Of a stretch of 64,000 nt of DNA, positions 46,651-57,634 are shown in pieces. The stretch's first letter is position 1; the number at the start of each line of letters is the position of its first letter. This stretch comes from Escherichia phage BP9: the sequence record PP488543.1. One strand, written 5' to 3'. The notes under the pieces are model-generated. The model saw only the letters and a list, made by a program, of their open reading frames with translations. It was not told the DNA's origin and made no database searches. The position numbers and the translations under genes were made by a program.

Positions 46651-46682
46651 ATAAAAAGGGGCCGTTTGGCCCCTTTCTTTTT
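46651..46682. terminator. bidirectional intrinsic terminator between convergent operons
   Basis: A-run, GGGGCC-GTTT-GGCCCC, T-run. Confidence 0.85.
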
Positions 46683-50896: not shown

Positions 50897-52378
50897 TTAC
50901 TTAGCGTACTCGATTAATTCCACAGTTTTACCAAAGCTAGGGATATAATTTTTATTATACCCTTCGGTGAGAACCCATAAAGTATCGTACTTTTTCCACT
51001 TGTTGTCAACAGCCTTTTGTTCAAAGTTATGCTCAAAGTATAGGTCGGTCAGGACGATGACATCTTTTGCATTTGGTATGTTGGCATCCAGATACTCGAA
51101 CACGCAAGCAGCTGTTGTGCCCCATGTTGAGTGGACCTCATAGTTGATCATTTCGTCTATGTTGCCGCGAGTATATACTTTAACCTCTCCGACTTCAGTT
51201 GACCAACAGAACATTGTAACCTTAAACTCTTTATACAGATTGCACAATCCGGTGATTTCATTGAACATTTTCTTTAAAGTTCTTTGAGAGATCGAGCCAG
51301 AAACGTCTAAAGCTACCACAATATCTATGGTGTTTTCCGGATTACGACCAGGAACAATAACGTGCTGGTTCTTGTTTATAGCCCCAACTTTTCGCATTGT
51401 GCTGGTCAAAGACCCAGATCGGCGACCAGGTTTTCTGTAGGTCAGTTCGGCCTTTCGTTTAGACAACATGCGTTGCTTAATGATGTCTATATAGTTGATT
51501 ACAGGCTTACCTCTGTTCTTGACAAACTCACGCACCGCCTCGGGGCAACGACCTCCGGAAGCTTGCATTGCTGCTTCCAGCATGTCACCAGAGTCTTGCA
51601 TGGCCTGATCTTTATCAGATTGGCTGATTACAGGTTGTGGCTGATCATACCCCATAGCCTTTCCAAGATCATCGCTGGTGCCACCGTTCCCACTCATGTG
51701 ATCATCGGTTTGTCGCTTATCCCCTTGAGAGTTCTCACCTTTACCGCTCTTACTTTTACCGTTATTCTGATCTCTTTGCTTATCAAGAACCGCATAGACG
51801 TTCTCAGCAATCCATCCATGAAACCTCATGTCGCAGTAGCAGCTGGCTAAGAAACCAAAAGGCTTACCTTTCACGAACGTAGTGCTTTTCCCCTTCGGGA
51901 AGAAAACACAGGGAGGCTTGCTAAAGTCAACCACAAGACCTGTGTTGATAACATGATCACAAGCAATATTAAACAGTTCCGGCTCGAAGCTTTTACCACG
52001 GACCAGGTGATCACAGATAATATGCCCCACCTCGTGTGACAGAAGAAAAGCCACCTCTTTCACAGATTTGGGAGAATAGAAAACCTCAGCCATCTCAAAC
52101 TGTTCGTCAGTTAGAGAAGCCTTAAGAATAGCCTTGCGTTCATCAGCCAATCCCATAATGAACTCAGGGCTGTAATAGATGCGTTTATGGTCGGTTGCCA
52201 TGGTGGAGCACCATGTGTGGTTTTCTACGAACTGCAATCCTGACAGCAGTGTGCCATAAAACGGCAGCTTTTCAAGGAGATACATACGTGCAGCCTGCAA
52301 CATTCTCAGGGCATCATCTTTCTGTGAGGCAATGATTTCTGAACTTCTGCTATCCATTAAAACTCCAGAAGGGGCCAA
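50897..52378 (-). CDS. VWA-domain protein with N-terminal HExxH metallopeptidase-like motif (CobT / DUF2201-like)
   Basis: 493 aa; HEVGHIICDHL motif; C-terminal VVALDVSGSIS MIDAS-like motif. Confidence 0.6.
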   Translation of the reverse strand: MAPSGVLMDSRSSEIIASQKDDALRMLQAARMYLLEKLPFYGTLLSGLQFVENHTWCSTMATDHKRIYYSPEFIMGLADERKAILKASLTDEQFEMAEVFYSPKSVKEVAFLLSHEVGHIICDHLVRGKSFEPELFNIACDHVINTGLVVDFSKPPCVFFPKGKSTTFVKGKPFGFLASCYCDMRFHGWIAENVYAVLDKQRDQNNGKSKSGKGENSQGDKRQTDDHMSGNGGTSDDLGKAMGYDQPQPVISQSDKDQAMQDSGDMLEAAMQASGGRCPEAVREFVKNRGKPVINYIDIIKQRMLSKRKAELTYRKPGRRSGSLTSTMRKVGAINKNQHVIVPGRNPENTIDIVVALDVSGSISQRTLKKMFNEITGLCNLYKEFKVTMFCWSTEVGEVKVYTRGNIDEMINYEVHSTWGTTAACVFEYLDANIPNAKDVIVLTDLYFEHNFEQKAVDNKWKKYDTLWVLTEGYNKNYIPSFGKTVELIEYAK

Positions 52379-52390
52379 TGGCCCCTGTCA

Positions 52391-53380
52391 TTATTTAACG
52401 TGTTTGAAAATACCTGCCAACTCGGTCATTGTCATGCGGGTGGTCTTCATAAGATCTGTCATAGCTTTCTCCATAATTGGAGATACTACCATAAAGTTAC
52501 CCTTGGTGAAACCTTTATTCCAGTCGGTCACTAATAGTGGTTTAAGTCCGACCCCGAGACGCTCACCAGTTAAAGCACAACATTTTCGAATGTACGTGCT
52601 CTTAAATTGACTGAATGACAGATCAACTTTCATACCTGCATCGTAGAACGTCTGACAATAGAAAGTGTAAGCTTTGGCAATCTCAACATCGTCAGGCAGT
52701 GCAGGAACCTCTTCTGTGAGCTCTTCTTCGTCCCCTTGAGGCTCTTTTTCCTCTTCGTAAGCCTGTTGCGCCACTTCTTTAATCTCCTCTGCTGCAGGCT
52801 CGTTTACAATGTCAGAAATGTGCTTGTTGGCTCCACGGTTAGCCATGAAGTTTTTAAAATCCTGCATTGGTGACATATCTTCCTCCCATTCTTCGTCAAA
52901 GAGTGCCAGTTTATCCTCTTCCGTCCCATATTGCAAGATGAAATCTTCAAAAGTGTAATCACCTTTCAATTTCTCCATGCGCTCTTCGCTCAGGTGGAGC
53001 ATCATCTGCTGGACAATTTTTCGATCAGTTTTGTCTTTAATCAAGATTGCGGTCTTTTTATCTACCAGGCAGTCTTTCAGAGAGTTACACCTCAATCCTA
53101 CCACACAACAGTTATCAATTGCGTAAGGACCTTCATCATCTATCCGCTCCAGAGATGGGTAGAAAGGATTCCCCAGCCCGTTTTCATCTGTGTACATGTC
53201 GAAAGGTATAAGGGTATAGTCGCATACCCCCTCTCCTAAAAGTTTTTTACCAAATAGGAGGTATTCTTCCCATGACAGGTTGAACTCTATATCCCGTTTC
53301 CGTGCATTATTCTGTTTGCGTCTATATTTTTTGAGCAGGCGCTCTAACTCTTCTGGTGTATAATATTTTTCAAGATTCAT
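52391..53380 (-). CDS. hypothetical early protein with Cys-containing N-terminal domain
   Basis: ATG at 53380 chosen because track TTG start 53446 lies upstream of the predicted promoter; first gene of minus operon. Confidence 0.4.
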   Translation of the reverse strand: MNLEKYYTPEELERLLKKYRRKQNNARKRDIEFNLSWEEYLLFGKKLLGEGVCDYTLIPFDMYTDENGLGNPFYPSLERIDDEGPYAIDNCCVVGLRCNSLKDCLVDKKTAILIKDKTDRKIVQQMMLHLSEERMEKLKGDYTFEDFILQYGTEEDKLALFDEEWEEDMSPMQDFKNFMANRGANKHISDIVNEPAAEEIKEVAQQAYEEEKEPQGDEEELTEEVPALPDDVEIAKAYTFYCQTFYDAGMKVDLSFSQFKSTYIRKCCALTGERLGVGLKPLLVTDWNKGFTKGNFMVVSPIMEKAMTDLMKTTRMTMTELAGIFKHVK

Positions 53381-53411
53381 GAGTTGTCTCTTGTGCTCTG
53401 TAGGTGAAGAA

Positions 53412-53440
53412 ATCTTATCAAGTGCCTCAACAGATGTCAA
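53412..53440 (-). promoter_or_regulatory. sigma70-type promoter for minus-strand early operon
   Basis: On minus strand: -35 TTGACA (plus 53435-53440), 17 bp, -10 TAAGAT (plus 53412-53417). Confidence 0.5.
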
Positions 53441-53453
53441 CCTCAAAAACGTG

Positions 53454-53482
53454 TTGACTTTACCCTAAATCCACGATATAGT
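53454..53482 (+). promoter_or_regulatory. sigma70-type promoter for plus-strand early operon
   Basis: -35 TTGACT 53454-53459, 17 bp, -10 TATAGT 53477-53482; -35 elements of the divergent pair form inverted repeat GTCAAC/GTTGAC. Confidence 0.55.
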
Positions 53483-53522
53483 GCACCCATTCGAAAGAAA
53501 ACGAACACAGGAGTACTTAATC

Positions 53523-54422
53523 ATGGCAAATCTTAACAGCTTTAGCACTCGGTGGAAACAAGATATCACAACCAATCTCTCAGCAGGCGATATCCTTTCT
53601 GCAATTTACGAGGCTTTGGATGATAAAGCTACTTCAAAAGCGGTTTGTACCAACCCACTAATTCCTGTAGTGATGAAGGTTATTGAGCGTAGATTGGTAT
53701 CTGGGTCTGATAAGTGGACATATTTAGATAATGAAGGACACACCTATTCCAATGGGTACGTCGATATAAAAGTAGAATACGCGGTATCATACCGCCGGAG
53801 CGGTTCTGTAACTTTCAACTTCTCTGGAGGTTTTCGATCTCTGGCTACCTCACCTTTTGTTTCCTCAGAGGAGAAGTATGAGCTTCCATTTCTTTGGATG
53901 ATGGCTAACGCGACAGGAAAAACCCCCGTTAGCATCCGAGTAAAATACAACTACAACGGATCTAGTAAGATCTATGCCGAGAGTGTCTCAGCAAGTTTTT
54001 ATTTTGTGATGGGGGATGGAATCCTCAAACATATAAAGATGTGCGATATGCATGATGTTATAAATGAAGTGACTGATAAGAATGTTCTGGTGAAGGATCT
54101 CAACAATTTTTATACACCCGGAGACTATTACGTCAGCCGTCCACTGTGCATCTTTAATGCCGCACACCCTCTAGGTGAGTATTTGATCGCCAATAGCGAT
54201 ATTGCCAATAACCGCTTCGAGGTAGCAAGAGTACAGAATGAGGTATTGACATCTTGCAAGAGCGGTGATAAGTTTACCGAAGAAGAGATGGGTGTTTTAG
54301 AAATGATGGGATATAAGTGTAGCCTTTGGGTAGATGAGGTGTTTAATGATTGCATCTATGGACAGGATATTTACCCATTAAAGAAGTATACTGATTCCAG
54401 TTTAATTTACGCGGAGATTTGA
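53523..54422 (+). CDS. hypothetical early protein
   Basis: ATG 53523 with SD AGGAG (track GTG 53481 overlaps promoter -10). Confidence 0.4.
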   Translation: MANLNSFSTRWKQDITTNLSAGDILSAIYEALDDKATSKAVCTNPLIPVVMKVIERRLVSGSDKWTYLDNEGHTYSNGYVDIKVEYAVSYRRSGSVTFNFSGGFRSLATSPFVSSEEKYELPFLWMMANATGKTPVSIRVKYNYNGSSKIYAESVSASFYFVMGDGILKHIKMCDMHDVINEVTDKNVLVKDLNNFYTPGDYYVSRPLCIFNAAHPLGEYLIANSDIANNRFEVARVQNEVLTSCKSGDKFTEEEMGVLEMMGYKCSLWVDEVFNDCIYGQDIYPLKKYTDSSLIYAEI

Positions 54423-54697
54423 CTATGATGAAGTCATGTGGTAGTGTATATTATGTTGGTGAGAATGTTCAGGCAGATAGTGTGTGGAAATCCATTAAGT
54501 CCACCACCGATGATGCCTTTCTGAGCGGGTTATGCTTTCCCAGCCCAGGGGACACTCTCCCTTACCCTGGAGATTTTGTTGTCAACAAGATGGACGGTTA
54601 TACCGTGTGCCTGATGGTTGAAAAAATCTTTTTAGACACTAGACACAATCACCGTCTTGTGTTAAAATTTCAAGAATGTAAAATGACAATTGCCTAA
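54419..54697 (+). CDS. hypothetical protein
   Basis: 92 aa; ATGA overlap with upstream gene. Confidence 0.35.
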   Translation: MTMMKSCGSVYYVGENVQADSVWKSIKSTTDDAFLSGLCFPSPGDTLPYPGDFVVNKMDGYTVCLMVEKIFLDTRHNHRLVLKFQECKMTIA

Positions 54698-54710
54698 GGA
54701 GACCTTGCCG

Positions 54711-55067
54711 ATGTCTAAAGTTACTTATCGTGCAGCTATTTACTGCAATGAACACCCAATCTATAATGATGGTCACTGCCTTTTTAAAGAAAATCAATTG
54801 GGCTGTATTGTCCTCCCTGATGAAGGTGAAGGTTATCTGATTGCGTTGACAGGGTTTGAACCTGAAGCTCTGGAAACCAATCTTGACTACCTGGTAGAAG
54901 AGGGTGCTGCAGACCTGGTTGCCAATGGCCTATCCGTAAGCCTTGATGAAGTGGAGCGCTTCATGGGCAATTACCGTGTAGTGCGTGAGTTTACTATCGA
55001 GGTGGAAACTCCAGAGTGGGGTAGCACTGAAACTAATGCCGAAGAAAAAGAAGAGGAGGTAGAATAA
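54711..55067 (+). CDS. small acidic protein
   Basis: ATG 54711 with SD AAGGAGA (track TTG 54690); Glu-rich C-terminus EEKEEEVE. Confidence 0.4.
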   Translation: MSKVTYRAAIYCNEHPIYNDGHCLFKENQLGCIVLPDEGEGYLIALTGFEPEALETNLDYLVEEGAADLVANGLSVSLDEVERFMGNYRVVREFTIEVETPEWGSTETNAEEKEEEVE

Positions 55068-55324
55068 TGAAAGTGCAGATCTTGACTAATGCCGAGAAGA
55101 TGTTTATTGAAGATACACCTTTTGAAGCTGGTGAGCTACAGTTCGTTTATTTTGTTGACTTAGATAAGGTGTTCCCTGCACTGAATCTGGGTCTGGATGA
55201 AGTTCCTCATAAGGTTTTGTGCCAAGTTGTTCGTGCCTTAGCGGCAGAGGGGGAGTTCCACACCCTTCAAGATATCCAGACCTACGGGTATCTTGAACTA
55301 CAACGAGAAGAAGAGGTGGACTGA
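55067..55324 (+). CDS. small acidic protein
   Basis: 85 aa; SD GGAGG; TAATG coupling. Confidence 0.4.
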   Translation: MKVQILTNAEKMFIEDTPFEAGELQFVYFVDLDKVFPALNLGLDEVPHKVLCQVVRALAAEGEFHTLQDIQTYGYLELQREEEVD

Positions 55325-55326
55325 TA

Positions 55327-55707
55327 ATGGCTCAGTGGAAGACAACAGTTGACCTTCATGATCAGTGGTTAGGACGCATCACTGAAGACGGGAAGTTAGT
55401 TGAGTGGGACAATAAGCATGTTAGCGAGTTGGCAAGTATTGTGGCTGGCAAGTTACGATCCAAGTTCCCTGAACAACTGGATCCTGATAGTTCAAAGTTC
55501 GATCCTGAGTTGGAGGATGTTGTATACTACTTCGACACCGTGGATGACTACGATGCGTGGTTTGCAGCACGGGAGCTTTACCCACAAGGATCTGCTATGC
55601 GCCAGATGGAAGAAGATTATCCTCCGTGCGAGCAATTCAATAGTGCAATGACTTGCCTCTACGATTGGGCAGATAAGAACCTTGTCTGGATTCGGACTGC
55701 ATTTTAG
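55327..55707 (+). CDS. hypothetical protein
   Basis: 126 aa. Confidence 0.4.
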   Translation: MAQWKTTVDLHDQWLGRITEDGKLVEWDNKHVSELASIVAGKLRSKFPEQLDPDSSKFDPELEDVVYYFDTVDDYDAWFAARELYPQGSAMRQMEEDYPPCEQFNSAMTCLYDWADKNLVWIRTAF

Positions 55708-55751
55708 TGGGCAGGAATGGCGGCAAGGATGCTGCTTAAGGAGTAGTAGAG

Positions 55752-56021
55752 ATGTTATACCAGCAATATGAACTTCGTGCAGAAAAAGAGTTAAATTTTG
55801 ACAAAGATATTCACAGATATTATTATGGGAAAGTTAGAGGGCAAGCAAGAAAGTGTACTCCAACACTCTTTTATGCCAGCAGACGACTAGCGCCAGAAGA
55901 GGCAACAGCAGAAAGGGTTGCGTACAACTGGAGAGTCACGTATGATATTGACAGATCCGATGTGATATCTGTTTTGGAAAACTTTGAAAACACTTACACA
56001 CAAGTAGAGGACTTTTACTAA
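55752..56021 (+). CDS. hypothetical protein
   Basis: 89 aa; SD AAGGAG; overlaps ATPase start. Confidence 0.4.
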   Translation: MLYQQYELRAEKELNFDKDIHRYYYGKVRGQARKCTPTLFYASRRLAPEEATAERVAYNWRVTYDIDRSDVISVLENFENTYTQVEDFY

Positions 56022-57205
56022 TGTCAAGAAACGTATTTGAAAGTGGTCAAATCACTGTCCGTGAGTTGCCAGCTATCATTCAGTTTGCCCAGCGTCATAA
56101 CCGATCTGTCCTGATTTTAGGACCAATGGGTGTGGGAAAGAGCCAGGTGATGAAGCAGATCGCAGACAATATGTTCGGTGAGCGAGATGACAACTTGGTT
56201 GACGTGCGGTTGTCAGATAAAGATCCTGCCGACTTATCTGGGCTACCTATCCCTGTAGAAGCGGATGGAACTACACGTACAGTGTTTGCAATTCCAGAAT
56301 TTTGGCCTGCGGATCCTGGCTGGAGCGGAATTATCTTTCTGGATGAGCTCACTCATGCAGATAACTACCTGCAAAAGGTTGCAATGCAAATTATGCTCGA
56401 CCACAAGTGCGGTACCTATGCATTCCCTAAAGGTTCTGTTTTTGTGGCTGCTGGTAACCGTTCTACAGATGGTGCGGTTCTTTCGGCGCTCGAAGCCCCT
56501 CTGGCTAACCGTTTTATCATTGTAGAAGTTACAAGCAATGCAGAGGTGTTTATTGAGGACTACGCATTCCTTAATGGGGTGCACTCCTCTGTAATTGGAT
56601 ATTTGAAAAGAGTTCCATCAGCTATCGATAATTATGAGGCTATGGCTGAGATTAATTGTCCATCTTTTGCCACACCACGATCTTGGGTTGCTGCATCTGA
56701 CATCTTGCACGATTTTGACAGCGGTATTATTTCTGACGCTATGGCCCGTGTTCTTCTGCAAGGTGCTGTTGGTCACACTGCAGCGGTAGAGATCTGGACT
56801 TACCACATCAAGAAACGTAACTTACCGGAAATCGGTCGGATTATGGCAGGAGGTTGCAAAGAATATGTAGGTCCTAAACAGCCAGACATCTTGTGGATTC
56901 TTGGATCTGAAGGTTGTATCGCTATTCGTAATATGATGGAAAATGCAAGTATCTCCGACGAAGATCTTGTTAGCTGTGTGGCAAACTTCCTCGATTTCCT
57001 TTGGGAAAATTTCAAGGACGAGAACCGAGATTTTGTATTCTCAGTCTTTATGGCGATGATGAAACCTAATGCCTTAGGAAATGCCTTGCTTATCGGTAAA
57101 GGGCGTGACAAGATTGTTGCTCAGCTGATCAAAGCATACCCAAACCTAATGAAGATTGTAAAAGAGTTTGGTGAAGAGTTTAGCGCCATTTTGGCTAAAG
57201 CTTGA
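56021..57205 (+). CDS. AAA+ ATPase, MoxR/CobS-like
   Basis: 394 aa; Walker A GPMGVGKS, Walker B IIFLDELTHAD. Confidence 0.75.
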   Translation: MSRNVFESGQITVRELPAIIQFAQRHNRSVLILGPMGVGKSQVMKQIADNMFGERDDNLVDVRLSDKDPADLSGLPIPVEADGTTRTVFAIPEFWPADPGWSGIIFLDELTHADNYLQKVAMQIMLDHKCGTYAFPKGSVFVAAGNRSTDGAVLSALEAPLANRFIIVEVTSNAEVFIEDYAFLNGVHSSVIGYLKRVPSAIDNYEAMAEINCPSFATPRSWVAASDILHDFDSGIISDAMARVLLQGAVGHTAAVEIWTYHIKKRNLPEIGRIMAGGCKEYVGPKQPDILWILGSEGCIAIRNMMENASISDEDLVSCVANFLDFLWENFKDENRDFVFSVFMAMMKPNALGNALLIGKGRDKIVAQLIKAYPNLMKIVKEFGEEFSAILAKA

Positions 57206-57605: not shown

Positions 57606-57634
57606 ACCCCCGCTTCGGCGGGGATTTTCTATTT
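57606..57634 (+). terminator. intrinsic terminator (CCCCGCTTCGGCGGGG family)
   Basis: CCCCCGC-TTCG-GCGGGGG then ATTTTCTATTT. Confidence 0.8.

Follow-up and report, generated by a model that had tools for sequence, protein, structure and literature searches.

Are two genes that normally lie side by side still partners when they are found on opposite strands and several kilobases apart? The question is raised by Escherichia phage BP9 (sequence record PP488543.1), of which we analysed a stretch of 64,000 nucleotides (nt), below called the window. According to the list of open reading frames (ORFs) one ORF of 493 amino acids (aa), counted from a TTG codon, occupies positions 50897–52378 of the minus strand and another of 394 aa positions 56021–57205 of the plus strand. 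A preliminary description had credited the first with a HExxH motif and a VWA domain containing a putative MIDAS (an adhesion site dependent on a metal ion), and the second with the motifs of a MoxR-like ATPase; both ORFs and all of these motifs were found. A distance of 3,642 bp separates the ORF ends and the orientation is divergent, which agrees with the separation of about 3.6 kb reported earlier. The pair is a DUF2201 protein with its cognate MoxR-like ATPase, i.e. it belongs to the gp24/gp25 type of phage N4. Overall we read the locus, with a probability of roughly 0.6, as a widespread two-gene module that was split in the genus Vequintavirus and still operates as one machine of an ATPase and a zincin-VWA protein.

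The zincin-VWA protein

Two Pfam families matched the minus-strand protein far above their gathering cutoffs, PF13203 (DUF2201_N, putative metallopeptidase) with 98.4 versus 23.2 bits (E = 7e-28) and PF09967 (DUF2201, VWA-like) with 43.7 versus 26.4 bits (E = 3.6e-11). The N-terminal zincin-like metallopeptidase domain covers residues ~10–321 of the 493-aa ORF (51416–52351, minus strand). It contains the HExxH motif as HEVGH at residues 115–119 (nt 52022–52036, minus strand), which is followed by H124 (nt 52007–52009, minus strand). In an alignment of 37 diverse homologues with identities down to about 20% the residues H115, E116, H119, H124 and D141 were invariant. Profiles of the minigluzincin MJ1213 (E = 0.005) and of two M48 proteases, BepA and HtpX, matched weakly around the HExxH helix. 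The Pfam family, the invariant HExxH-x4-H and these profile matches point to a predicted zincin-type N-terminal domain.

The C-terminal DUF2201 domain is VWA-like and has a MIDAS of the pattern DxSxS...T...D, beginning with DVSGS at residues 358–362 of the ORF. The full set of D358, S360, S362, T421 and D445 was invariant among the same 37 homologues. A further segment of the zincin-VWA gene was delimited at 50909–51361 on the minus strand. Fold matches of the VWA domain included NorD and BchD, while a PDB sequence search with the VWA protein alone yielded no match. The AlphaFold2 (AF2) model had a mean predicted local distance difference test score (pLDDT) of 81.8.

The start codon of the gene is almost certainly the ATG at 52357 and not the TTG at 52378. 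The ATG is preceded by a GGAG Shine-Dalgarno sequence and yields a protein of 486 aa, which is the length of the closest database cluster (P0001) and of the 1,461-nt coding sequence annotated in phage JohannBauhin. The TTG of the mechanical ORF, on the other hand, falls inside an intergenic hairpin at 52370–52386. Thus we take the coding sequence, the homologue of N4 gp25, as 50897–52357 of the minus strand; Pfam, the Shine-Dalgarno sequence and the AF2 model agree with this.

The MoxR-clade ATPase

The plus-strand coding sequence (56021–57205) codes for a AAA+ ATPase of 394 aa with a C-terminal helical extension, the homologue of N4 gp24. Walker A reads GPMGVGKS (residues 34–41, nt 56120–56143) and Walker B IIFLDE (residues 104–109, nt 56330–56347), both on the plus strand. 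K40, S41, D108, E109, N146, R147, R164 and R220 were invariant in 36 homologues; N146 is the sensor-1 asparagine, while the roles of arginine finger and sensor-2 arginine were assigned to R164 and R220 by position only. Nine of the 37 invariant columns of the alignment lie in the helix-2-insert segment, residues 61–99. In the structural model (mean pLDDT 85.8) β-hairpins are inserted after helix 2 and before sensor 1, as is typical of the MoxR clade, and the best fold matches were CbbQ, NorQ, midasin and dynein.

By Pfam alone the ATPase remained below the gathering scores, with 16.8 versus 22 for AAA_5 and 15.2 versus 27 for bpMoxR, and a PDB sequence search with the ATPase alone returned only generic P-loop matches to Clp proteins. 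Yet homologues at E of about 1e-43 carry AAA_3 or AAA_5. The link of the window ATPase to MoxR is therefore transitive and structural. Taken together, domain and fold searches confirmed the VWA as well as the AAA+ fold, the two points on which the preliminary description had made its reading depend.

Family and distribution

N4 gp24 and gp25 were retrieved by BLASTP with E-values of 2e-26 and 2e-18, respectively, and gp25 by tblastn with 3e-13. Furthermore, the window ATPase is homologous to ATPases encoded beside DUF2201 genes in Sulfurivermis fontis (E = 6e-38), in an N4-like roseophage (E = 4e-18), in N4 (gp24), in the jumbo phage 121Q and in Certrevirus POP15. The ATPases of two loci with deviating gene order, L100 and L103 (see below), aligned to it with hhalign probabilities of 99.3 and 99.5%. 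The POP15 pair is annotated as 'Sll7029/Sll7028', and homologues of the VWA protein include cyanobacterial Sll7028-type proteins. In the whole window each of the two proteins was the sole match to its own family profile, even at E ≤ 10.

When 1.84 billion cluster representatives were searched with a profile, 14,542 of them proved to be related to the VWA protein at E ≤ 1e-30. In the phage collection 721 records matched the VWA protein and 826 the ATPase, with near-equal counts per genus and one copy of each per genome. The family was found in all Vequintavirinae, in Rak2/121Q jumbo phages, PA5oct, cyanophage S-TIM5 and N4-like phages, and it is very common in bacteria. Among N4-like phages gp24 and gp25 are two of 14 core genes; they are middle genes, and their function is given as 'unknown' or 'vWFA domain' (PMC4193335; PMC2784036). 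NCBIfam gave no family name for the pair.

We also considered the vWA-MoxR ternary conflict systems (Kaur et al. 2020; PMC7159879), in which a third component (VMAP, FtsH or a β-propeller) and effectors join the two proteins. This assignment was rejected because no third conserved component was seen near either gene. The bpMoxR score below the cutoff and the PADLOC search, which gave no significant match to a defence system, spoke against it as well.

Gene order and the split

To what extent the layout of the window departs from that of the family was addressed by a survey of 80 IMG/VR loci. They were seeded with the ATPase alignment because the VWA alignment lacked a sufficiently conserved stretch of 7–10 columns; ten loci ended right after the ATPase, which left 70 informative ones. 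In 66 of these the ATPase gene was followed at a distance of -58 to 548 bp by a DUF2201 gene of the same strand, and 62 of the adjacent loci represent a single lineage; at 60% ATPase identity there were about ten lineages, two of them split. The split loci (2/70) were a near-identical Vequintavirus (L006) and L007, the proteins of which are 47–53% identical to those of the window. The statement of the preliminary description that such genes are normally adjacent thus holds in viral loci, and likewise in N4, 121Q, POP15, metagenomic phages and bacteria. In the window the DUF2201 gene is not immediately beside its cognate ATPase gene. Because adjacency is a contextual hallmark and not a sequence criterion, this does not affect family membership.

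In the remaining two loci, both short environmental phage contigs, another gene followed the ATPase. In L043 (2904–3980) it encodes a radical SAM enzyme (E = 9e-15), in L084 (3207–3791) a 2OG-Fe(II) oxygenase (E = 5e-19); such a gene may have been inserted between the two partners or may itself code for an alternative one. Two further layouts were seen. In L100 the order is reversed with the ATPase gene directly downstream, and in L103 both genes are on one strand with four small ORFs between them. A protein of 819 aa (P0025) was examined as a candidate ATPase-VWA fusion and rejected: it has an N-terminal extension, and its ATPase is a separate gene directly downstream, in reversed order.

Within the Vequintavirinae the adjacent form is kept in Certrevirus POP15 and the related contig L008, while the split layout is common to Vequintavirus, Seunavirus SSE121 and L007. 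In the latter group the VWA gene and a gene resembling Srd (see below) lie on one strand, then comes a divergent promoter region, and several small genes and the ATPase gene are on the other strand. The layout persists at 45–53% protein identity (L007, SSE121). The contrast with Certrevirus indicates that the split is derived yet old and belongs to one sub-clade. A local rearrangement in an ancestor of Vequintavirus, Seunavirus and relatives would have moved the VWA gene across the divergent promoter region. When the window was compared with POP15 and L008, only the two focal genes were recognisably conserved. Because the flanking small genes are not, we can only infer what took place, probably that the segment around the divergent promoter was inverted.

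A scan of genome contigs added ten loci, mostly contigs of metagenome-assembled genomes with a phage-derived look, and told little about the bacterial context. Sulfur-oxidising gammaproteobacteria have, after the pair, a conserved gene for a protein of ~370 aa (L002, 7297–8409; L105, 7320–8441; L106, 2266–3387). This protein had no Pfam match and is 89% identical between two genomes. The gene is set among those for Hsp15, thioredoxin, HtpG, Lon, peroxiredoxin and ferrochelatase, i.e. proteostasis and redox functions, and it may be a third component of, or a functional hint for, the cellular versions. In a metagenomic locus (L102, 1526–7218) the gene of a 1,090-aa SNF2/ResIII helicase overlaps the downstream AAA_3 ATPase gene by 4 nt and DUF2201 follows; these may form a three-gene operon.

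Are the two genes still partners?

The ratio of nonsynonymous to synonymous substitution rates (dN/dS) was 0.03–0.05 in both genes, indicating purifying selection as strong as that on rIIA. Together with the hundreds of homologues of each protein this means that neither is a chance ORF. Both genes are retained in all 121 Vequintavirus-like records. The pairwise divergences of the two proteins were correlated with r = 0.96 (75 loci; Mantel test 0/999), and the split lineages followed the same trend. In our analysis the two proteins most likely still act as one machine.

How might such a machine operate? The 394-aa ATPase would assemble into a hexameric ring, onto which one or a few 486-aa zincin-VWA subunits would dock by analogy with CbbQ-CbbO and NorQ-NorD. 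The metal of the MIDAS would capture an acidic side chain or a peptide of a target protein. ATP hydrolysis would then remodel the target and expose a cleavage site, and the zinc-peptidase domain with its invariant HExxH would cleave it. The analogy rests on the CbbQ6:CbbO1 complex, where one VWA protein binds the CbbQ hexamer, the MIDAS engages an acidic residue of Rubisco and the substrate stimulates the ATPase, which leads to remodelling (PMC4660213); the coupling of MoxR and VWA proteins in general has been reviewed (PMC7159879). The analysis establishes homology, domain and fold identity, the intact catalytic residues and the genomic linkage, while complex formation, substrate capture by the MIDAS, proteolysis and early-or-middle timing are all points that we infer. 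The proteolytic step, predicted from motifs, is on its own substantially less probable than the reading as a whole.

One may go further and imagine the gp24/gp25-type module as an ATP-powered, MIDAS-targeted protease that N4-like, rV5-like and Rak2-like jumbo lytic phages use to remove a specific host protein in the early or middle phase. Such a target might be a defence factor, a protein associated with the nucleoid or with replication, or one trapped on DNA. The split in Vequintavirus would then adjust how much of the adaptor is made, or when, in relation to the motor by placing the VWA-peptidase directly behind a Srd-like host-takeover gene across a bidirectional promoter. We regard this extension as speculative and rather unlikely.

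Transcription units and neighbouring genes

Between ~47 and 54 kb the GC skew reverses, which marks the strand switch between the two arms. Two sigma70-like promoters, both consensus matches, are located back-to-back at a distance of 14 bp. The one for the left arm, TTGACA-17-TAAGAT with a TG extension (53412–53440, minus strand), precedes the Srd-like gene, the VWA gene and small genes; the one for the right arm, TTGACT-17-TATAGT (53454–53482, plus strand), precedes seven genes including that of the ATPase. The VWA gene is second in the left arm and the ATPase gene seventh in the right. The divergent operons postulated earlier are thus headed by sigma70-like promoter sites. The left-arm site is identical in JohannBauhin, and SSE121 (L086) and L007 have strong promoter-like sites (11/12 matches) at the equivalent position upstream of the Srd-VWA arm. 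The best consensus match of the region, TTGACA-17-TATTAT (11/12), is situated at 55798–55826 inside an 89-aa ORF just upstream of the ATPase start and could be a promoter of the ATPase's own.

The first left-arm gene, directly upstream of the VWA gene (52391–53380, minus strand), is Srd-like and is labelled 'anti-sigma factor' in JohannBauhin; here it serves as context only. It matched phrog_3118 at 2.9e-110, the families of Srd anti-sigma factors and sigma70 decoys more weakly, and also PHROG families labelled HNH endonuclease and endonuclease VII. The gene is directly upstream of the VWA gene in every split lineage (window, L007, SSE121), and no such gene turned up in the vicinity of adjacent pairs.

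Between the stop codon of the Srd-like gene and the Shine-Dalgarno sequence of the VWA gene there is a perfect hairpin with a 7-bp stem (AGGGGCC-ATT-GGCCCCT, 52370–52386, minus strand), a candidate attenuator or element of RNA processing or stability. The right arm ends one gene after the ATPase with a terminator-like hairpin, CCCCGC-TTCG-GCGGGG followed by a T-rich tail (57608–57623, plus strand); beyond it are the genes of a SleB-like hydrolase, rIIA and rIIB. Where the plus-strand tail-fibre genes converge with the minus-strand left arm, a palindromic GC-rich hairpin with a 9-bp stem (46655–46676) is a probable bidirectional terminator. Judged from the sigma70-like promoters, the Srd-like gene and the nearby rIIA/B, a placement in the early region is plausible.

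Proximity to rIIA and rIIB was seen in N4 and in the window alike. In several unrelated phage lineages, represented by N4 (L089), 121Q (L088), L003/L004 and L005, the pair is found about 0.3–1.6 kb from genes of thymidylate synthase (ThyA/ThyX) or dCTP deaminase/dUTPase. This neighbourhood may reflect a functional link to the nucleotide-metabolism and replication module or merely a shared placement among middle genes.

Alternative explanations

Several points weigh against a joint, proteolytic machine. Correlated divergence is expected for any co-inherited genes, hence it supports co-retention and not interaction. Being in separate transcription units, the two genes could differ in dosage or timing or be functionally uncoupled in part. 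The promoter-like sites themselves were only modestly above shuffled sequences (34 versus 23.9 ± 4.2), promoters and terminators being consensus matches. Peptidase activity is predicted from motifs alone and the sequence ties to M48 proteases and minigluzincins are weak; fold searches gave no independent confirmation of the N-terminal zincin fold because matches to the VWA domain masked it. The characterised MoxR-VWA systems are remodellers or metal inserters and not proteases. Finally, we found no functional study of DUF2201/COG3864, of N4-like gp24/gp25 or of the MoxR of rV5, Schitoviridae or Vequintavirus in the literature.

The main competing explanation is a non-proteolytic chaperone or metal-insertion system of the CbbQO, NorQD, CobST or BchID type, in which the HExxH domain would be a metal-binding or adaptor module and which would activate or metal-load a phage or host enzyme, e.g. 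in nucleotide metabolism. It draws support from the function of every characterised MoxR-VWA pair, from the best structural relatives of the ATPase (CbbQ and NorQ), from the VWA-domain matches to NorD and BchD, and from the thymidylate synthase, dCTP deaminase or dUTPase genes beside the pair in N4, 121Q, L003 and L005. Yet the glutamate E116 of HExxH is as invariant as the histidines, while a pure metal site needs no catalytic base. The chelatase domains CobS_N, CobT, CobN and Mg_chelatase were unmatched in the Pfam and NCBIfam scans, although no search was aimed at CobN, and the neighbourhood of nucleotide metabolism is anecdotal and absent in the window. Thus we consider this explanation unlikely. 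Another candidate was the cobaltochelatase-like auxiliary metabolic pair suggested by the comparison with CobT/CobS in the preliminary description. The general architecture of a AAA_5-type ATPase and a VWA protein is the same, but membership calls for CobS_N with AAA_5 and for CobT with CobT_C, and none of CobS_N, CobT and CobT_C was matched in Pfam or NCBIfam at E ≤ 0.1. Instead, the VWA protein passed the thresholds of DUF2201_N and DUF2201, and N4 gp25 and the cyanobacterial Sll7028-type proteins are homologous to it. The CobS/CobT comparison therefore did not hold; at the family level it is effectively refuted.

Could the rearrangement have made the two genes independent, so that each now acts by itself or has found another partner within its arm? 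Their position on different strands and in different transcription units, 3.6 kb apart, would allow for it, as would the extra promoter-like site at 55798–55826 and the small lineage-specific genes that flank the ATPase, among them a conserved gene of 126 aa upstream of it in L007 and SSE121. Against this, both genes were kept in all 121 records under equally strong purifying selection, and their divergence runs in parallel, as it does where the two genes are neighbours. The MIDAS and the ATPase's helix-2-insert surface are still invariant, and the window has no further VWA or AAA+ homologue, the flanking ORFs being too small to be either. Independence appears very unlikely to us. A chaperone for virion or tail assembly has a viral precedent in the archaeal virus ATV with its MoxR-type p618 and its VWA protein p892 (mentioned in PMC7159879 and PMC4660213); in addition, the 121Q pair comes directly after structural genes and the left arm of the window abuts the tail-fibre cluster. 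On the other hand, the N4 pair are middle genes within the replication and nucleotide module, the window pair is in a region of sigma70 promoters with Srd-like and rIIA/B genes, the bacterial members reside in chromosomal, non-viral settings, and no homologue was reported among the virion proteins listed in PMC4193335. These data make an assembly function highly improbable. We therefore favor the view that ATPase and zincin-VWA protein of the window continue to work together.

Annotation in public records

The genus Vequintavirus (rV5/FFH2-like) includes over 100 Escherichia phages to which the region is 95–97% identical over its full length. Several near-identical GenBank records label the VWA gene 'putative metallopeptidase' or 'VWA-like domain containing protein' and the ATPase gene 'MoxR ATPase'. 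Both genes are thus already annotated, and the pair is an ordinary member of a large known family with a minor variant of layout. In other records DUF2201 zincin-VWA proteins carry wrong labels, i.e. 'HNH endonuclease', 'anti-sigma factor', 'DNA repair ATPase' and 'T4-gp25-like'. The first is widespread, affecting phrog_1314 and many RefSeq phage records including 121Q, SSE121, K64-1 and PA5oct, while the last is apparently a mix-up with N4 gp25.

Some labels nearby call for comment, too. The 89-aa ORF at 55752–56021 is labelled 'ATPase' (phrog_13164) but lacks any feature of an ATPase. The right arm's first gene (53523–54422) is a 'putative alpha 1-3 fucosyltransferase' in many records; its sole PHROG family is phrog_12338 of unknown function, Pfam and NCBIfam gave no match, and the label looks unsupported. 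Furthermore, 16 unannotated 'Campylobacter phage' records (MG0656xx) with C. jejuni as host match E. coli Vequintavirus genomes over the 7-kb region with about 95.5% identity. Their host or name looks doubtful.

The family is among the most conserved unknowns of lytic phages, and it is mainly the family and not this instance that deserves interest. The only distinctive feature of the window pair is the divergent, lineage-specific split. It offers an experimental handle, as each gene can be deleted or mutated without a polar effect on its partner, and tractable Vequintavirus phages of E. coli K-12 with the split are available in the BASEL members JohannBauhin, AlexBoehm and MaxBurger. The present analysis also flags the widely propagated 'HNH endonuclease' misannotation.

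Comparison with known systems

How does the pair compare with other couples of a MoxR-clade ATPase and a VWA protein? CobS-CobT likewise combines a AAA_5-type MoxR-clade ATPase with a VWA protein. Its family-specific domains, however, are absent in the window pair, the VWA partner of which has a zincin domain instead. cobS occurs in cyanophages. RavA-ViaA and generic MoxR-VWA pairs also consist of a MoxR-clade ATPase and a VWA partner, the gene of which is normally downstream. Yet RavA has a LARA domain, ViaA is devoid of a peptidase domain, and the Pfam families differ from those of the window pair. NorQ-NorD is a metal-insertion chaperone for a respiratory enzyme, nitric-oxide reductase; it has a cellular role and lacks the HExxH domain. 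In CbbQ-CbbO the VWA protein CbbO has about 770 aa and no zincin domain, the target is Rubisco and proteolysis does not take place. Outside the AAA+ and VWA cores the sequences are not significantly similar to those of the window pair.

The direct homologues are gp24 and gp25 of N4, which share the domain architecture, and rIIA/rIIB are nearby in both genomes. The Vequintavirinae proteins are longer than those of N4, with an insert in the zincin domain and a C-terminal helical insert in the ATPase. In N4 gp24 is followed by gp25 in the same direction after a gap of 167 bp, whereas in the window the two genes are divergent and 3.6 kb apart.

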